Source: Promethearchaeota archaeon (GTDB lineage: Archaea; Asgardarchaeota; Lokiarchaeia; Sigyniarchaeales; Promethearchaeaceae). From it: a DNA stretch of 32,000 nucleotides. The notes under the pieces are model-generated. The model saw nothing but the letters and a program-made list of their open reading frames with translations. It was not told the origin of the DNA and ran no database searches. The stretch covers positions 30,001 to 62,000 of the forward strand of contig JAFGBS010000019.1 in NCBI GenBank assembly GCA_016933055.1, given 5' to 3'. Made by a program: the position numbers and the translations under genes. The first letter of the stretch is position 1. Every line of letters starts with the position of its first letter. Shown here piece after piece: positions 1,316 to 25,721 of the stretch.

Positions 1316-1373
1316 TTTGTCGGAAGCGACAGAATTAATAAAATGGCATAATTCGATGGCACGTTCCGACAAA
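1316..1373. promoter_or_regulatory. 10-bp perfect inverted repeat upstream of the HTH-ATP-cone gene; candidate operator or hairpin
   Basis: TTTGTCGGAA (1316-1325) and TTCCGACAAA (1364-1373), 38-nt spacer, next to a TTATAT TATA-like element at 1311-1316. Confidence 0.35.
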
Positions 1374-1408
1374 AGTCAAAATATCACACACAAAAATGAG
1401 GGCTTAAA

Positions 1409-3739
1409 GTGAAACCAGATCTGTATAGTAGTCTTGGTGCATTTTCGAACAAAACTCGGATGGAAATAGTACGATTATTATTCCAAATCGGCAATCCCGT
1501 TGGTTTTACAAAATTGATGGAAGGGATCGGGTGTGATCCCGCAAATTCCTCCAATCTTGCAAATCATTTAAAAAAATTAGTAGAATTGGGTTTAGTTGAA
1601 AAAGATTCCAGTACCTATGCTCTTACCAAGTTAGGACTACAACTTTATGATCAAATTGATGGTATCGAAAAAACAATAGAAGAACATAACAAGGATATAC
1701 TAGTACGTACTTCCGATTTCTGTTTTGAGTCTTTTGATGAGAGAAAAATCACTGAAAATCTTATTAGAGAGGCTGATTTTTCGGAAGAAGAAGCCTTTTC
1801 TCTTGCAAAAATCGCAAAGCGTAAATTATTAACTGCAGAAATCACCTATCTAACAGCTCCCCTCATCCGTGAGTATATGAATGTCATTTTATTGGAGGAA
1901 GGAAAAGAAGAGGCACGACATAAACTTACACGTTTGGGATTACCTCCGTTTGACGTAAAACAGTTACTACATCAAGGGAATTTTGAAACAAGTATAATGC
2001 TGTATAATGAACTTGGAAAACACATAATGGAACAATTCCTTCTTTTAAACCTCTTACCTCAAAGATTTGCTGATTTTTACCTATCTGGCAAGCTATTTTT
2101 TCTTCATCCTGAAAGTTGGGGATTGATTCCCCTCGAAGTAGTTATTCCAGGAGAAAAGTTTACAAAAATTATAATAGAGATGTGTGAAGAATATGATCCA
2201 GATGATCCAGAGGAACAGCCCTCATTAAACCAGTTCCTTCCCCTAGTGATTAATAACTTTTTTGAATATCTTCGTAATTTCTTTAGCGGTGGTGCGGTAA
2301 TTACAGAATTTGAATACGTTCTACGGGAACTTCATTTCCACTTCAAAAAGTCACAGGCAGCAATTCTAGATTTATTATTTGAGATGATTCCTTCGCTTAA
2401 AATCCAATACTCCCATGATAAACGTACAAATCATAGCAAGATTTGGGAGCTTTGGATTGAAATTGATCTTAACAATTTAGACACATACAGTGATGAAATT
2501 GAATGCATTATAAATAAATATCATGAAGATATTCGAAAATGTTCACCAGATTTTTCAAGTGGATTAATATACAAACCCAATCTTATAATGAATTTCTCAC
2601 CCCAATGTAAAACTATTATTCTGGACGCAAAACAGTTCACTGATCTACCCGAAATTTACCAAAAAATATTGGAAATTTCGCAGTCTCATAATATAACGAT
2701 TATATCCCCACCTGCGCTTAAAAGTCAAAAATTTAAAAAAATGATAATCACTCCCCACTTGAATCCAATATATATCGATAACACTTCCGAATCTATACTA
2801 GTATTGGATAAAATATATGTAAACCTCCCAAAGATCATCCAAATCAGTGAAAATCCTCCAACCTCCCATAGTTCAAGAGTAGCGTGTGCATTTACGACCA
2901 AGAGTTCTTTTTCTTTAGATAAAACTAAAGAAGATATCGAGAGAGATATTAACAAATTCACTGAAACTCTAAAAGAATGGATCTGCCATGCAATCAACCT
3001 TTTTGACGAGAAAATGGCTCTTATATCGAAAAATATCGGGAAATTCAAACTGTGGAACTCCGTATCCAAAAAGGTGTTTAACAGGGATCTATTCCAAAAA
3101 CCGACGGATTTAATTGATTATGATGGACACATCCCTATATTTTGTGGGATTTGTTTAAACGGTTTAACAGAAACAGTGCAATATTTCACAGGATTTTCAG
3201 CGGATAAACACTCGGAATCATTCGCATTTTTAACCAAAATACTTTCTACAGTTTCCAATTTATTGAAAAGTAATTCACAACCGAATGGTGTTAGCTATGT
3301 ACTGAGTCAAGCCCACCTAGACAATTACCTCCATGTTAGATTTCACCAAGATTCGAGTTTAATACATTATTTGATGCAAAACAAGATATCACTGGAAAAT
3401 GATCAAGAAAATCAAAACAAAGATAAATCGGTGTATGCTCATTCAGTATTTAACAACCATACCGTTTATAATTTGAAAAAACTCGCTCATAATTTCAAAA
3501 TATATCAAAAAGATATGGATCTTGCGTATCTAAATATTGATATTACCCACCCATTAGAAACCTCGCATTTATTGGGTTCATTTAAGACTATTTTAAGGAA
3601 TCGAATCCATTCATTCGGGTTCTCACGGATTATAAATTACCAACATTCATCTTTATATCGATATGCTGGCTCTTACAAACCCCTTTCCTATTATCATTCC
3701 CCCATTCAAGAACTAATCCGACAAAAACCTACAAAGTGA
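1409..3739 (+). CDS. ArsR-like wHTH + ATP-cone + degenerate class III (NrdD-like) ribonucleotide reductase domain; probable pseudoenzyme or regulator
   Basis: N-terminal HTH (SNKTRMEIVRLL...LANHLKKLVELGLVEK). ATP-cone (VRTS...FDERKI...YLTAPLIREYMN). NrdD-like segments RHKLTRLGLP, VNLPKI, GICLNGLTETV and C-terminal RYAGSY. GTG start with GAGGG upstream. Confidence 0.75.
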   Translation: MKPDLYSSLGAFSNKTRMEIVRLLFQIGNPVGFTKLMEGIGCDPANSSNLANHLKKLVELGLVEKDSSTYALTKLGLQLYDQIDGIEKTIEEHNKDILVRTSDFCFESFDERKITENLIREADFSEEEAFSLAKIAKRKLLTAEITYLTAPLIREYMNVILLEEGKEEARHKLTRLGLPPFDVKQLLHQGNFETSIMLYNELGKHIMEQFLLLNLLPQRFADFYLSGKLFFLHPESWGLIPLEVVIPGEKFTKIIIEMCEEYDPDDPEEQPSLNQFLPLVINNFFEYLRNFFSGGAVITEFEYVLRELHFHFKKSQAAILDLLFEMIPSLKIQYSHDKRTNHSKIWELWIEIDLNNLDTYSDEIECIINKYHEDIRKCSPDFSSGLIYKPNLIMNFSPQCKTIILDAKQFTDLPEIYQKILEISQSHNITIISPPALKSQKFKKMIITPHLNPIYIDNTSESILVLDKIYVNLPKIIQISENPPTSHSSRVACAFTTKSSFSLDKTKEDIERDINKFTETLKEWICHAINLFDEKMALISKNIGKFKLWNSVSKKVFNRDLFQKPTDLIDYDGHIPIFCGICLNGLTETVQYFTGFSADKHSESFAFLTKILSTVSNLLKSNSQPNGVSYVLSQAHLDNYLHVRFHQDSSLIHYLMQNKISLENDQENQNKDKSVYAHSVFNNHTVYNLKKLAHNFKIYQKDMDLAYLNIDITHPLETSHLLGSFKTILRNRIHSFGFSRIINYQHSSLYRYAGSYKPLSYYHSPIQELIRQKPTK

Positions 3740-3744
3740 GTTAT

Positions 3745-4917
3745 TTACCCCTTTTTGATTCCCTTTATAATCCTAGTAAATACATCCCAAGATGTTTGGG
3801 TGATTTGGGAAAGATTCATTGCTGAATGCAATTTGAACTGTATACTCGGTATGTGATATCGTTCCATAAGCTTGTAACACAAAGTATTTCTGAAATAAGG
3901 TTGATTGAGCTGGATTTCTTCTTTCATGCCATTACAATACCTGATCAAGAGCTTTACAATCTTCTGGTAGAGGTTGCGAGCCTTTTTATTACTTAATAAA
4001 TCTACAGGATAAATGTAAGGACGTATAGTTTTATTATCTTGGAAAAAGGAATGCATTTCTAAGTATAAATTAGGTTTGTTTTTCTCTAAGTATTTCCAAA
4101 TATGCTGATTTTCTTCTGGCATATCATCAGTATTCTCAAACCACGCAAAAAAGGGATTCTCACCTTTAGAGTTGACCATATTGGTTCCCAATATCATACC
4201 ATCTGGATTTTGAAAAAATATACATTCTAGAGAAAAATGAGATAAAAAATCATCCCAAAATTCTGCACCTTTGTTTAAGAACTCTTGTAAAATTGTTAAC
4301 GTAGCAAAATCTCCACATTCATTTGGTTGTGGAGAACCTGCAATGAGAATCTTGCAACAGTTGTCTTGAGTTTCACTATCGGATTTTATCTTAAGAGAAT
4401 ATATGGAATTACGCATCGGAGATAGTCCTATTTGTGTCAATTTTAAGAAAGTGGGATATAGTTCAGCCAAACGCTCAATTTCATCGAGTAATTGTGAATA
4501 TGGAAAAGCTAACATATTAGAAATTATGAGTTTCTGATAAGATTGGAGTAAGAGATTGATAGACATGCTTTGAGGTGTTGCTCGAATGGTATCACGGGGA
4601 AGTTTCTCCGGTAAGATTTGCTTATTAGGAGAGAATGTCCATAGAGAAGGATTGAGACTAAATTGCCATCCTTTCCATACATCATCATAATCCGCAATTG
4701 CTGTAACAGTAACATGTTGGGGATCCTTTTGTAGATTCTCAATTTGGAATTTAAAATAATAAGCTTGATTAGAATAATTCTCTCCAGGATCCCTTTTCGG
4801 TTCGAAACTGTAGATATCCCCCGGATATTTTCTAAAATTTATTGCATTACCCCCTTCAATTTCCGAGGTAAGCAAGAATTTTCTATCTTTAAATTGACGT
4901 ATTGGTTCCATATGCAT
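3745..4917 (-). CDS. M14 zinc carboxypeptidase-family protein, cytosolic carboxypeptidase (CCP/Nna1)-like, with degenerate active site
   Basis: N-terminal EGGN beta-domain, FPYS, QPNE at the HxxE position, NPDG and LEMH. Alternative start at 4911. Confidence 0.7.
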   Translation of the reverse strand: MHMEPIRQFKDRKFLLTSEIEGGNAINFRKYPGDIYSFEPKRDPGENYSNQAYYFKFQIENLQKDPQHVTVTAIADYDDVWKGWQFSLNPSLWTFSPNKQILPEKLPRDTIRATPQSMSINLLLQSYQKLIISNMLAFPYSQLLDEIERLAELYPTFLKLTQIGLSPMRNSIYSLKIKSDSETQDNCCKILIAGSPQPNECGDFATLTILQEFLNKGAEFWDDFLSHFSLECIFFQNPDGMILGTNMVNSKGENPFFAWFENTDDMPEENQHIWKYLEKNKPNLYLEMHSFFQDNKTIRPYIYPVDLLSNKKARNLYQKIVKLLIRYCNGMKEEIQLNQPYFRNTLCYKLMERYHIPSIQFKLHSAMNLSQITQTSWDVFTRIIKGIKKG

Positions 4918-16566: not shown

Positions 16567-17694
16567 TTAAGGCATCCGTCTTCGTTTAATACGTTTTAAT
16601 CGTTTATCTAGTTTTTCTGTAAGCTCATCAAAAACTGTGTTTAAATCCCACCCTCCTGCAGAGACAGACACAACATTACTTGGAATAAATGCTCGGGCTT
16701 TTACCTCAAACCTTCTTTTTTTTCCTGTCGATGATTTTACTCGACCATCTACTATAATTTCTTGAAGATCCGGATGAAATTCGAGACTTGCTGAAGTGAT
16801 TCGCTCAATTTTTCGCATAGCAGAATCTACAATGCTTTTATCAAAGTCCTTGAAACCAGATTTGATTATTGGGAGTTGAACAGCTGGTATAAATTGAGTT
16901 ATTAGAGTTATAATATCCCGGGGAGTAATAATTCCAACTGGGATGGAGTCTTCTATAACAAGGCAATAACCCTTGCTTTTAGTGATCATTTTGCGAATCA
17001 CATTTAATACACTTGTGTTTCGTGTAACTTTAAGAGGGTGTTTGTCATAAGTTTCTTTAATACCTTTTTCCCAAATTCTTATGTTATTACCTATTCTCTC
17101 CCCGACTTTTTGACTTTCACTTGGTTGGATATAATTAATTACCAAATCTTTCGCTGTTAATATACCTAAAAGTTTTCCATCTCTACCTACTACGGGTAAG
17201 TGACTTATTCCCTTATTACGCATGTGTTCCCTAACTACACTTATTGAGGAGTGTATCTCAACTGTAACTATATCTTGTACCATTAACTCATCTGCGGTAA
17301 GCCCTTTTAGATCTTTACAAGATGCCATTTTGCTTAAGAGTGTATTTTGTCGCACTATTCCTTCTACGGATTTATTTTCTCTTACCAGTAAAATTCGGAC
17401 TTTATAATCAATAAAAATCCTCGCAATGTCATAAATAGGAGTTTCTTGGGTTACACTTGGAGGTTCTATCGTGACACTTGCAACGGGAGTTCTTTCAGGA
17501 TGAGTTACTTCTAAAACATCTCTAACCGTAACAAGCTTTGATTGTTGACCATTTGTTACTACCACTTCGTAACTTTTTGATGACTTAAAAAGGGAAATCA
17601 ACTTAGAAATGTATTCAGAAGACTTAATTACTGGATAATTTTGCTCAATTATTTCACTAGCTGAAGATTCTGCAAGATTTTTTAAAAACTTCAT
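16567..17694 (-). CDS. Four-CBS-domain protein with a C-terminal HPF/RaiA-like domain (putative archaeal ribosome hibernation factor)
   Basis: CBS repeats (e.g. ISHLPVVGRDGKLLGILTAKDL, PVGIITPRDII), followed by a ~100-aa beta-alpha-beta-beta-beta-alpha domain (FEVKARAFIP...GWDLNTVFDELTEKLDKRL) with a basic tail. Confidence 0.75.
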   Translation of the reverse strand: MKFLKNLAESSASEIIEQNYPVIKSSEYISKLISLFKSSKSYEVVVTNGQQSKLVTVRDVLEVTHPERTPVASVTIEPPSVTQETPIYDIARIFIDYKVRILLVRENKSVEGIVRQNTLLSKMASCKDLKGLTADELMVQDIVTVEIHSSISVVREHMRNKGISHLPVVGRDGKLLGILTAKDLVINYIQPSESQKVGERIGNNIRIWEKGIKETYDKHPLKVTRNTSVLNVIRKMITKSKGYCLVIEDSIPVGIITPRDIITLITQFIPAVQLPIIKSGFKDFDKSIVDSAMRKIERITSASLEFHPDLQEIIVDGRVKSSTGKKRRFEVKARAFIPSNVVSVSAGGWDLNTVFDELTEKLDKRLKRIKRRRMP

Positions 17695-20214: not shown

Positions 20215-21744
20215 TCATAGAAGTTGAGAAAAATCTAAACCGATAGTATCTGGATTTTCGAGATACTTCTCATATGTAATAAACAGTTTCTGAGCACTTG
20301 GGATAGATCCCAAAATCGACGCACCATTAAAAATTGCGGTATTCCGTTTTGCGGGTAACACGATTTTGATAATATCTCCGCCATCGTCGGCAAATGTGTC
20401 CTCTTCGAACTCTGTCGCCTTAATTGCCTGCAAATCTTTAATTTTGGGTATAAATTCTTCCGATCCAAATTTTTTTGGGCTATTCAAGGGAATTGGCACT
20501 ATCTTTCCCCCACAAAAGGGACAAAACGAACTTTTACCTTCTAATTTTTTTTTGCAGTGAGGACATTTATTGGGGTATTCAAAGTCGGAAGGAATATTTA
20601 TGGTAGTAGCACCAAATATGTAACCGCATTTAGAGCAAATTTTTGTGGTTGCGAGATTTACGCGTTCCCCGCATTTTGGACAAGTATCCATCATTTTAGT
20701 GGGAGTGTCAACATTAATCATTCGCGGTTTTTCCAACGATTTTCTTGATATTGATGGCTTAGGTAACGGACCCAGCTGAGGTAATAACTGTTTTAATTCT
20801 TCTTCTAAACGAAAATTCAATCCTTGGAACATGGTATTACCCCCCGATAACACGATACTTTTTAGCATGGTTCTCCAGTATTGTTTATCCAGTTTCGATA
20901 AGGAATTAATGATTGCTTGTGCAATATTGGATACATTATACCCTAACAATTCAGGATGAAACAAGATTTCAGGTGCATTTACTCGGACACTCATTGGAAA
21001 TTTTACAGATTCTCCATCGGGTAAAATGTACGACGTGATATCCTTATTGTGCTTTGCAACTTCTTCGGGATTTAGTGCAATAAAACAGGTTTTTTCTTTT
21101 ATATCGCGTAAAATTTCCTTTTGAGCTGTAGACGTGATATTAACTCCATATCCTAGCAGTAGTGTACGTAAATATTCTGATACATCTTTTCCCGATAGAG
21201 TTAATTTCTGAACTGCATGAGTAACTACTTCTCCATCTATGATTGGAACAATCCATGTTAGACCCTCACCACTTTCCACTAACATTCCAGTGGTTAATCC
21301 CGCACTAAATAATGCCATCACCGGTGCATTAGCAATATATACACTTCTCACTCGATAAGTTTCAAAAAAGAGCCGTGTAATGTATTTTTTCGTATCTAGA
21401 GGAGTTAATGCATTTTCGGGATAAATAACTTTGACTTTTGAAGGATCAGTTCGTAGAACATTATAAAAAATGTGAGTCAATACAGAATAGTAACTATCCC
21501 AATCCATAATTGCTCCACGGTTAAAAGGATAAGTTATTTTAAGTACTCCACGCATACGCATGCAATCTTCGCCAACATACTGATCCTTGGTATCAACATC
21601 CGCCATTACTGATTTGTATTTTTCCTTCCCCGTCATTGTGGGAAAAATAACTGGTTGCTCATCACCAGCAAAGCCTACTTTTGTATAGGCTTCTCCGATA
21701 TCAATTATGACTATCTGCTCGTCTTCAGGTGTGGATTGCGTCAT
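20215..21744 (-). CDS. Actin-related protein with an inserted double zinc ribbon
   Basis: IIDIGEAYTKVGFAGD, YVGED, YPFNRGAIMDWD, ESGEG, IKEKTCFIA, LPDG, APEILFHP, IVLSGGNTMFQG, IFNGASILGS. Insert carries four CxxC pairs. Confidence 0.93.
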   Translation of the reverse strand: MTQSTPEDEQIVIIDIGEAYTKVGFAGDEQPVIFPTMTGKEKYKSVMADVDTKDQYVGEDCMRMRGVLKITYPFNRGAIMDWDSYYSVLTHIFYNVLRTDPSKVKVIYPENALTPLDTKKYITRLFFETYRVRSVYIANAPVMALFSAGLTTGMLVESGEGLTWIVPIIDGEVVTHAVQKLTLSGKDVSEYLRTLLLGYGVNITSTAQKEILRDIKEKTCFIALNPEEVAKHNKDITSYILPDGESVKFPMSVRVNAPEILFHPELLGYNVSNIAQAIINSLSKLDKQYWRTMLKSIVLSGGNTMFQGLNFRLEEELKQLLPQLGPLPKPSISRKSLEKPRMINVDTPTKMMDTCPKCGERVNLATTKICSKCGYIFGATTINIPSDFEYPNKCPHCKKKLEGKSSFCPFCGGKIVPIPLNSPKKFGSEEFIPKIKDLQAIKATEFEEDTFADDGGDIIKIVLPAKRNTAIFNGASILGSIPSAQKLFITYEKYLENPDTIGLDFSQLL

Positions 21745-24491: not shown

Positions 24492-25721
24492 TTATCCTCC
24501 AAATTCTTCTCTCCAATCCTCAAAACGCTGGATCTCTTCCTCACTTACGGTAGGTCGAATCTTTCGTAACGCATGATCAAAATCATCACGGTTAATAGGA
24601 CGAACTTGAACATCTGAATTTCCTTCGAGTGATCCCATTTTGTCTAATTCTCGTATGGGGCGCATAATTACCTCTCTGCACACAATTGCAATGTCACTTC
24701 CGGAGTATCCTTCTGTTATTTCGGCTAATTCACGAAAATCTACACTTTGTTCTCGATCAATTCCTCTTGTATGATAGGCAAATATGGCTTCCCGGGAATC
24801 AATATCGGGTAGGGGTGTATAAATTTTTCGTTCAAATCGACGTAAGAACGCACTATCAATATCCCACGGGCGGTTGGTCGCAGCCATGATGGTTAAGAGT
24901 TTCTTCGCAGTACTTCCTCCGCCTTTTACACCTTGGATCTCTTGGAGGAGCTGAGTTTTCAAACGACGTTCACCCCCTCCTTCGGAGGCGCCACCGCGTG
25001 TACCTGCAACAGAATCAATTTCATCAAAAAAGACAATACTCGGTGCCTTTCTTCGAGCAACATCAAATAAAGCGCGCACTAATTTTTCAGATTCCCCGAG
25101 CCATTTACTCATAATACTAGCGGAATCAGCAACAAAGAAAGTACATTTTATTTCATTTGCAGCTGCTTTGGCGAGCATAGTCTTACCACAACCCGGGGGT
25201 CCAAAAAGTAATATGCCTGACCATGGTTGTCGTGCACCGGTGAATAGCTCGGGTCGTTTTAACGGGAGAACTACAGCTTCACGAAGTGCTTGTTTGGGAT
25301 CAGGTAAACCGGCAATATCTTCCCAAGAAATATCGGGTTTTTCGATTAAAACCGTCCCCATGACCATCTTTTCCATTTCAAGTTCTTCTTCGGTTAATTC
25401 TTCTTCCTCTCCTTCTGCTTCCCCTTCCTCGCTATCTTTTCGTACGGAAGTGGATTTACCCGATAGAGAGGATCGTAATCGAACTCGCTTAGTTCCCATG
25501 CTCTTTAATTCGTCTGCACGATCTAAATATTCATGCGCTTTATCGGACCACATTTGTTTCATATTCGCATTTTTGGTGTATTTCGTGCATTCCACTAAGA
25601 TCTCAGCAGCTTTAATATAATTTATGGTCGCTTCCCGGTAGTTTTTTGCTCTATCAAATGCAATCGCTTGCGATGCGATTTGTTTTGCATATTTAAGCAT
25701 TTTTGAATCTGTTGAGGACAT
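24492..25721 (-). CDS. vps4: Vps4-like AAA+ ATPase with an N-terminal MIT domain
   Basis: MIT (AKQIASQAIAFDRAKNYREA...YLDRADELK), GPPGCGKT, pore loop SKWLGESEK, FFDEID, ATNRPWDIDSAFLRRFE, C-terminal FEDWREEFG. Confidence 0.93.
   Translation of the reverse strand: MSSTDSKMLKYAKQIASQAIAFDRAKNYREATINYIKAAEILVECTKYTKNANMKQMWSDKAHEYLDRADELKSMGTKRVRLRSSLSGKSTSVRKDSEEGEAEGEEEELTEEELEMEKMVMGTVLIEKPDISWEDIAGLPDPKQALREAVVLPLKRPELFTGARQPWSGILLFGPPGCGKTMLAKAAANEIKCTFFVADSASIMSKWLGESEKLVRALFDVARRKAPSIVFFDEIDSVAGTRGGASEGGGERRLKTQLLQEIQGVKGGGSTAKKLLTIMAATNRPWDIDSAFLRRFERKIYTPLPDIDSREAIFAYHTRGIDREQSVDFRELAEITEGYSGSDIAIVCREVIMRPIRELDKMGSLEGNSDVQVRPINRDDFDHALRKIRPTVSEEEIQRFEDWREEFGG

Follow-up and report, generated by a model that had tools for sequence, protein, structure and literature searches.

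The gene at positions 1409 to 3739 (plus strand) of the window, the 32,000-nucleotide stretch of a Promethearchaeota archaeon genome analyzed here (GCA_016933055.1, contig JAFGBS010000019.1, positions 30,001 to 62,000), encodes a winged helix-turn-helix (wHTH) domain, after which come an ATP-cone and a barrel derived from the class III ribonucleotide reductase (RNR) NrdD that appears to be catalytically dead. The open reading frame (ORF) starts with GTG, where the same-genus orthologue has ATG at the matching position, and runs intact through 776 codons to a stop at 3737-3739. The loss of the catalytic residues, a retained ATP-cone and the gain of a DNA-binding head make this protein most likely an undescribed nucleotide-sensing regulator and not an enzyme. 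We assign a probability of about 0.6 to the reading that it is a non-catalytic NrdD descendant acting as a nucleotide-responsive, probably autoregulated DNA-binding regulator. A sequence-only reading of the window had already described an intact 776-residue fusion of these three parts, stripped of the NrdD catalytic set and without an nrdG activase nearby, and had proposed a pseudoenzyme repurposed as a deoxynucleotide-sensing regulator, possibly analogous to NrdR. Its account of the frame, the architecture and the lost catalysis is borne out by the analyses below, while its interpretation is supported in part.

The fold of the C-terminal part, as modeled, is that of NrdD. An AlphaFold2 model built from a 121-sequence family alignment reached a predicted local distance difference test (pLDDT) score of 89.6 and a predicted template modeling score of 0.83, with disorder restricted to residues 487-501 (pLDDT <50). 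The top 36 Foldseek matches of the model in PDB are all class III NrdDs (E 1e-14 to 4e-8), and VIA aligns model residues 96-776 to NrdD chains with Z 22-26 and root mean square deviations (rmsd) of 3.3-3.8 Å over 450-520 residues, compared to Z values of at most 18.8 for other glycyl-radical enzymes and at most 17.4 for class I RNRs. The relationship is distant at the level of sequence. Identity to solved NrdD structures is 11-14%, the Pfam NRDD profile scores 21.5 bits over residues 510-633 (gathering score 26.2), no NrdD model was matched in an NCBIfam search of the target, and a single-sequence search of the PDB sequences had no relevant match, its best one being an inositol phosphatase at E about 1. 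A family profile was therefore needed, and this profile recovered solved NrdDs at E 2e-32, 1e-28, 3e-24 and 5e-16. The barrel (residues 191-700; nucleotides 1979-3508, plus strand) carries FLHPESWGLIPLE at residues 231-243 and the scaffold motifs listed in the sequence-only reading, VNLPKI (471-476), GICLNGLTE (580-588) and YVLSQAHL (630-637). Asn472 of the NLP(K/R) motif, which corresponds to N412 in E. coli, is kept family-wide, and new conserved motifs occupy the former active-site loops, namely LTPxLxP, and SQxH where NrdD has TPAE. A clade-specific insertion at residues 481-513 (nucleotides 2849-2947, plus strand) includes the disordered stretch and is only 12% identical to the orthologue. 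A complex prediction with two copies of the barrel core (residues 186-684) scored 0.27 against a mark of 0.42 and was not used either way.

In order to follow the fate of the active site, the protein was compared with E. coli NrdD translated from MG1655 (C175, C384, G681 and the zinc ligands C644, C647, C662 and C665) and with two phage NrdDs. The thiyl cysteine corresponds to C384 in E. coli and C290 in T4, and the second cysteine to N174-C175 and N78-C79, respectively. Residues 106-258 contain no cysteine, so that none lies near the position of C175, and C259 is kept in the closest orthologues only, not across the clade. The finger loop reads LTPHLNP (residues 447-453), and as residues 401-492 are free of cysteine the thiyl cysteine is gone. 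The HxHD site, a substrate-triphosphate contact motif in P. copri NrdD (PMC11226230), reads FFLH (residues 230-233) in the target as opposed to HYHD or HIHD in the references. The CxxC...CxxC zinc ribbon has been deleted in the target clade, and the sole CxxC (C579-C582) sits in a barrel strand, with only C579 conserved in the clade. What persists of the C-terminal glycyl-radical domain (residues 701-776; nucleotides 3509-3736, plus strand) contains the motif RYAGSYKPLSYY, in which R-x-x-G-Y has become R-Y-A-G-S-Y (residues 751-756): the glycine is present (Gly754, nucleotides 3668-3670), and one residue is inserted before the tyrosine that is highly conserved directly after the radical glycine in NrdD (PMC11226230). 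The altered motif was thus described correctly from the sequence, and its glycine is invariant only in a 14-member subclade; in the wider family the position is alanine, serine or glycine, or the whole C-terminal module is missing. The full catalytic set is kept by none of the 229 family members fetched.

The absence of the NrdG activase, first noted for the window, extends to the whole source assembly (3.76 Mb, 91% complete; the window lies on its contig C27), where the best hits to TIGR02495 and TIGR02491 reach 39 and 32 bits against cut-offs of 131 and 126. A search for a second, intact RNR, as the sequence-only reading had suggested, was successful: contig C17 encodes a class II adenosylcobalamin-dependent reductase, RTPR (TIGR02505, 438 bits; cut-off 340), with its own ATP-cone and the NPCGEQ motif. 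Deoxynucleotide synthesis in this genome is thus covered by a class II B12-dependent RNR. The evolution of the gene is also not neutral. Compared with the same-genus orthologue, which has the same length and 60% identity, nonsynonymous differences per site (pN) amount to 0.248 and synonymous differences (pS) to 0.751, the latter saturated. The lowest pN is found in the ATP-cone and linker (pN 0.158, pS 0.82), followed by the wHTH (0.187 and 0.65), the barrel (pN 0.22-0.27) and the C-terminus (pN 0.34), while the insertion at residues 481-513 is the only unconstrained part (pN 0.65, pS 0.50). The gene is consequently under purifying selection, strongest at the ATP-cone and the wHTH. Because all tested catalytic features except a bare glycine are missing, no activase is found, an intact class II RNR is present and selection is purifying, the data support the protein being a pseudoenzyme.

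A second dead NrdD, P0122, is encoded in the same genome (C28:152305-154533, minus strand; positions 1486-3714 of locus L001). It combines an ATP-cone with an NRDD domain (317 bits), lacks a wHTH and is annotated in the sources as an active anaerobic RNR. Its C175 is replaced, C384 is missing, G681 has become aspartate and half of the zinc site is gone. All members of its 16-member Lokiarchaeial clade (49-100% identity) share these losses, with aspartate, asparagine or lysine in place of the radical glycine, whereas every catalytic residue is kept in the 98 Asgard NrdDs that were fetched at about 42% identity. In the tree, the P0122 clade forms a recent, independent offshoot of these intact Asgard NrdDs. 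The genome would accordingly be without class III RNR activity despite two NrdD-like genes, and metabolic reconstructions should be corrected in this respect.

The N-terminal head (residues 1-95; nucleotides 1409-1693, plus strand) bears a recognition helix, SSNLANHLKKL (residues 47-57), and a long C-terminal helix (residues 74-94). Pfam recognizes residues 10-82 as DUF7347 (35-38 bits; cut-off 27.6), HTH_5 (25.1-25.8 bits; cut-off 22) and HTH_20, and the N-terminal part of the family profile matches ArsR (E 5e-5) and HxlR proteins among the PDB sequences. When the N-terminal 190 residues were modeled alone (pLDDT 87.5), residues 3-96 matched repressors of the HxlR/YodB/QsrR, ArsR/SmtB (CadC, CzrA, SmtB) and MarR groups at VIA Z 12-13, with an rmsd of 1.6-2.4 Å over 86-93 residues. 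The matched structures are dimeric repressors, several of them solved with DNA. The head also carries the ArsR-type recognition-helix signature S-x-x-L-x-x-H-L-x-x-L, and in the N-terminal alignment H53 is invariant and R17, L24, L57, Y70 and G76 are near-invariant. These observations support a wHTH that is, by the model, complete and of the dimeric-repressor type, in a protein that appears to be built like a regulator.

The ATP-cone (residues ~96-165), together with the conserved linker RHKLTRLGLPP (residues 170-180), spans nucleotides 1694-1978 (plus strand). It falls below Pfam detection in the target, but PF03477 is detected in 50 of the 52 relatives in the N-terminal alignment (best E 3e-8), and the target has all of the invariant cone residues of these relatives. 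The invariant positions of cone and linker are R100, S102, F109, E121, A129, R154, E155, R175, G177 and P179. The whole-model alignments to NrdD chains begin at model residue 96, equal to residue 15 of S. thermophilus NrdD, and the predicted elements (strands 98-100 and 106-108, helices 111-122 and 126-142, strand 147-149 and helix 150-163) would form the beta-hairpin roof and helical bundle, ahead of the RNR core, that characterize a cone. The structural search with the N-terminal model was taken up by wHTH matches, and so probed the head and not the cone by itself. The cone hairpin reads V-R-T-S-D in the target and K-R-D-G in bacterial cones. Intact Asgard NrdDs have VRTTDG, FRSEGD or FRTEGD, and share R-T/S with the target. 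VRTSD is therefore the hairpin native to archaea and has not degenerated. The cone is also the most conserved part of the protein, with every invariant column of the 121-sequence full-length family alignment falling in cone and linker. Binding of ATP or dATP is its candidate role.

The family of wHTH-NrdD-like proteins is large in Asgard archaea and near-universal in the order of the target. Of 301 genomes sampled from the phylum, 154 have it; the two families of that order yielded wHTH-containing matches in 6/6 and 67/69 genomes, and several other Asgard families have such matches too. The orthologues are intact (773-781 residues, 56-60% identity to the target). Family members are annotated in the sources either as active anaerobic RNR or as generic ArsR regulators, and no paper describing the family was found in the literature searched. 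The tree shows that the target gene is derived from NrdD itself. Every wHTH-fused protein lies on one side of a branch with 100% support, which fits a single, older origin. Zinc-retaining wHTH forms are closest to the real NrdDs, and the target clade is sister to a group holding a Promethearchaeum syntrophicum protein that is listed as an ArsR-family regulator.

A link to nucleotide metabolism is indicated by the neighborhood of the family. The gene adjoins pyrB (TIGR00670, 366-398 bits) in 18 of 21 loci, representing at least five families, and in several lineages pyrI follows pyrB. Counted by genome, the pair occurs in 18 of the 20 sampled besides the target's. The arrangement with pyrB is usually tail-to-tail, twice in tandem, and the surrounding genes vary. 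In one sampled lineage an intact nrdD stands on the other side of the gene. In genome G007 an intact NrdD (L044:6179-8419, plus strand), with all catalytic residues and the hairpin VRTTDG, is tail-to-tail with the wHTH pseudo-NrdD gene, which is followed by pyrB and pyrI, and the locus is possibly the birthplace of the fusion by tandem duplication. In the sister family (loci L031-L049) the gene is inserted in the conserved rpoA1-rpoA2-L30e-NusA-S12-S7 cluster, right after S7, and is tail-to-tail with pyrB, after which come L44e and TFS.

The promoter of the gene contains conserved candidate operators. A TATA-like TTATTATAT (1308-1316) is followed, just downstream, by an inverted repeat TGTCG-N4-CGACA (1318-1331) within TTTGTCGGAAGCGACAG, the repeat being at -91/-82, and then by TCCGACAAAA at -43. 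The repeat is overlapped by a box, TTTGTCGG, and the two together (1316-1331, 78-93 nucleotides upstream of the start) constitute a candidate operator, with TCCGACAAAA (1365-1374, plus strand, 35-44 nucleotides upstream) as a candidate operator half-site. In the promoter of the orthologue both arms of the palindrome are found at -92/-83 with another spacer, and an identical TCCGACAAAA at -44, although the surrounding DNA has diverged. The full repeat occurs once in the 3.76-Mb genome, where about 0.5 occurrences are expected. As for the box, TTTTGTCGG is 55% intergenic, compared to an intergenic genome fraction of 12% and to at most 27% in each of 19 composition controls. The context examined from 21 genomes, 388 kb in total, holds 26 CCGACAAA sites, of which 16 lie between -200 and +60 of the start of a family gene, a region making up 1.4% of this DNA. 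Within the sister family, codons 3-5 overlap with the box, the wobble base being fixed and the first base variable, and in one genome with a shifted start codon it is retained untranslated. The box is a real regulatory element strongly associated with the family gene, and its concentration at the 5' end of this gene across genomes suggests autoregulation. A generic TFB recognition element (BRE) or TATA-like element was considered as an alternative identity and rejected, as the box is absent from the neighboring ribosomal, RNA polymerase, pyrB and TFS promoters and 62% of its sites in the 388 kb are at the 5' end of the family gene.

Elsewhere in the two genomes of the genus, about eleven promoters hold the box at nearly equal distance, among them those of carA, orc1/cdc6, a Gtr1/RagA-like GTPase, a TrmB-family regulator, a PLD/GNAT protein, an AAA ATPase and a D12 DNA methyltransferase. 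At orc1/cdc6 the conserved position is -35/-34; further conserved boxes are found upstream of gyrB and where the D12 DNA methyltransferase gene starts. In the target genome about 22 intergenic CCGACAAA/TTTTGTCGG sites were counted (e.g. C2:25645, C6:82804, C10:22450/22487, C16:187207-187555 and C17:392234), defining a candidate regulon with positions conserved in the sister genome G234; its further members are gyrB/folP-like, Ras-like GTPase, polyprenyl synthase, AAA_5 ATPase and pstS-like genes. Inverted box pairs exactly 35 bp apart and with no large ORF nearby were observed in both genomes (C2:64980-65022 and, in G234, C142:2194-2263). An Rfam search of the two loci gave no match, and these pairs may belong to the promoter of a small RNA or to a DNA element of another kind. 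The ends of a mobile repeat were also considered for the paired boxes and rejected, as each locus has a different sequence between its boxes.

Taken as a regulator, the protein would bind DNA as a dimer through its ArsR/HxlR-type wHTH, the ATP-cone, with the hairpin signature of functional Asgard NrdDs, would report the ATP/dATP state, and the dead barrel would serve as a scaffold for oligomerization and signal transmission. It would probably repress its own promoter via the palindrome, situated between the TATA-like element and the start codon, and the CCGACAAA box, and the other promoters with this box (carA, orc1/cdc6 and others) may be targets too. The conserved proximity to pyrB, and in one sampled lineage to nrdD, suggests a role tied to nucleotide supply. 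We infer that the protein itself may bind the box.

Several observations weigh against this reading. The connection between box and protein is circumstantial: another factor could bind, the gene of a TrmB-family regulator carries the box too, and no common function unites the genes that follow it. None of 18 pyrB loci has the box upstream, and a single weak one precedes pyrI. The usual tail-to-tail orientation means that the gene and pyrB share no promoter, and in the target genus the two are no longer neighbors, the gene having moved, with pyrB and pyrI on other contigs. A box-like TTTTGTCG, placed at -63 in one comparison and at -58 in another, is present at about -60 of the class II RTPR gene, but its core G is an A in the sister genome, and no NrdR-box-like tandem sites turned up at this promoter, where only the box-like motif was searched for. 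Direct control of pyrB, pyrI or RTPR through the box consequently finds no support in the promoters compared. The Pfam scan of the target itself, as noted above, also misses the cone. Of the earlier proposal, the regulator-like build stands, strengthened by the conserved palindrome and box in the gene's own promoter; a link to RNR promoters is not supported in this genome.

The main alternative, which we consider rather unlikely, is that of a pseudoenzyme outside transcription, a nucleotide-binding regulatory or scaffolding subunit acting through contacts with proteins such as aspartate carbamoyltransferase or an RNR, the winged helix mediating protein-protein contact or a general tethering to the nucleoid. 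The adjacency to pyrB would fit such a subunit, being conserved although mostly tail-to-tail and so without a shared promoter, as would the purifying selection acting on the barrel and the new conserved motifs LTPxLxP and SQxH at its former active-site loops. Against it speak an ArsR-type recognition-helix signature with an invariant H53, Z values of 12-13 to repressors solved on DNA and a conserved palindrome in the gene's own promoter, and the gene has been kept in the target genome though unlinked from pyrB and without an active NrdD. If instead the protein sits at the CCGACAAA boxes near orc1/cdc6 and other genes of DNA transactions, its task may be tied to replication and not to gene expression, so that chromosome structure or the initiation of replication would respond to nucleotide status. 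The boxes at orc1/cdc6, gyrB and the D12 DNA methyltransferase gene, and the inverted pairs without a large ORF in two genomes, point in this direction. The majority of boxes are however located in the usual promoters of genes without a common theme (GTPases, polyprenyl synthase, PLD, SDR), a repeat array like that of an origin was not seen and the link between protein and box is itself unproven, which makes this an improbable explanation. A bolder extension of the regulator reading would place the protein, as master sensor, at the top of a nucleotide checkpoint specific to Asgard archaea, the cone reading the ATP/dATP balance and binding to CCGACAAA boxes co-regulating its own gene together with carA, orc1/cdc6, gyrB and the DNA methyltransferase. 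In this list carA represents the entry step of pyrimidine synthesis and orc1/cdc6 the replication initiator; such co-regulation would link precursor supply to the initiation of replication in the prokaryotes most closely related to eukaryotes. We regard this extension as doubtful.

Residual catalysis is far less probable. A cryptic enzyme could use the retained glycine of RYAGSY as radical site, or could have remodeled the barrel for a new reaction, and the invariance of Gly754 in the 14-member subclade and the family-wide Asn472 may be cited in its favor. To our knowledge, every known glycyl-radical enzyme requires a thiyl cysteine, and no cysteine is found anywhere near the finger loop; the tyrosine that should follow the radical glycine is displaced by the inserted residue, most of the family has alanine, serine or glycine at the glycine position or has lost the C-terminal module, and no activase candidate scores beyond the generic radical-SAM level. 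That the gene is a decaying remnant without function, a thought raised by the loss of all catalytic residues and the 11-14% identity to solved NrdDs, has practically no probability left: the 776-residue frame is intact and so are those of orthologues with 773-781 residues and 56-60% identity, members of the family occur in 154 of the 301 genomes sampled, and a pN far under the saturated pS in every domain but one loop contradicts decay. The preferred reading is thus still that of a nucleotide-responsive DNA-binding regulator.

The immediate surroundings of the gene in the target genus consist of genes for a coiled-coil protein, an M14-like protein, a glucan phosphorylase and a tyrosyl-tRNA synthetase, and in the target genome neither an RNR gene nor a pyr gene adjoins it. 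The M14-like neighbor (window positions 3745-4917, minus strand; 390 residues) has a weak, partial match to Peptidase_M14 (27.7 bits, profile positions 4-108 of 286) and stays next to the gene in the sister genome. Further along the window, all on the minus strand, are a protein joining CBS domains to an S30AE domain like that of ribosome hibernation factors (16567-17694) and two typical Asgard eukaryote-like genes, one for an actin (253 bits) with double zinc ribbons fused to its C-terminus (20215-21744) and one for Vps4, with MIT, AAA and Vps4_C domains (24492-25721).

NrdR is mostly bacterial. For the largely uncharted transcriptional control of deoxynucleotide and pyrimidine supply in archaea, the family described here provides a concrete, testable nucleotide-sensing candidate, for which an operator is predicted and a candidate regulon defined. 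The family would represent the reuse of a radical-enzyme scaffold as a sensor, and extends the known contexts of the ATP-cone.

The closest parallel in logic is NrdR, the cone of which senses ATP/dATP and which often regulates its own gene (PMC9110341, PMC11226230). Both proteins fuse a DNA-binding domain to an ATP-cone, and in both the nucleotide-dependent oligomeric state would control the binding to DNA. However, the N-terminus of the target is an ArsR/HxlR winged helix without a Cys4 motif, in place of the zinc ribbon of NrdR, its cone is followed by a whole dead NrdD barrel of about 590 residues, and the conserved neighbor of its family is pyrB and not an RNR operon. The target is NrdR-like in its logic without belonging to the NrdR family. 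Given that no RNR or pyr gene adjoins it in the genome, that the box-like site at RTPR is not conserved and that the family neighbor is pyrB, the term ‘NrdR analogue’ is reasonable for a possible mechanism and not for a demonstrated role. With the class III NrdDs of T4, T. maritima, P. copri and S. thermophilus, the protein shares the arrangement of cone, ten-stranded barrel and C-terminal loop domain, but it is without both cysteines, the HxHD site, the zinc ribbon, the G-Y radical motif and an activase, and has an additional N-terminal wHTH. P0122 is likewise derived from NrdD and has likewise lost C175 and C384, yet shows conservation at 49-76% identity; it differs in having no DNA-binding domain and a clear score, 317 bits, to the Pfam NRDD profile. 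Enzyme-derived regulators are otherwise known from PurR and PyrR, PurR of B. subtilis being composed of a winged helix and an inactive phosphoribosyltransferase fold. Like these, the target would reuse a non-catalytic enzyme fold as the probable ligand-sensing part of a regulator of nucleotide-synthesis genes, whereas its fold is the glycyl-radical/RNR barrel, its lineage is Asgard, and sensing is probably performed by the appended ATP-cone and not by the old active site.

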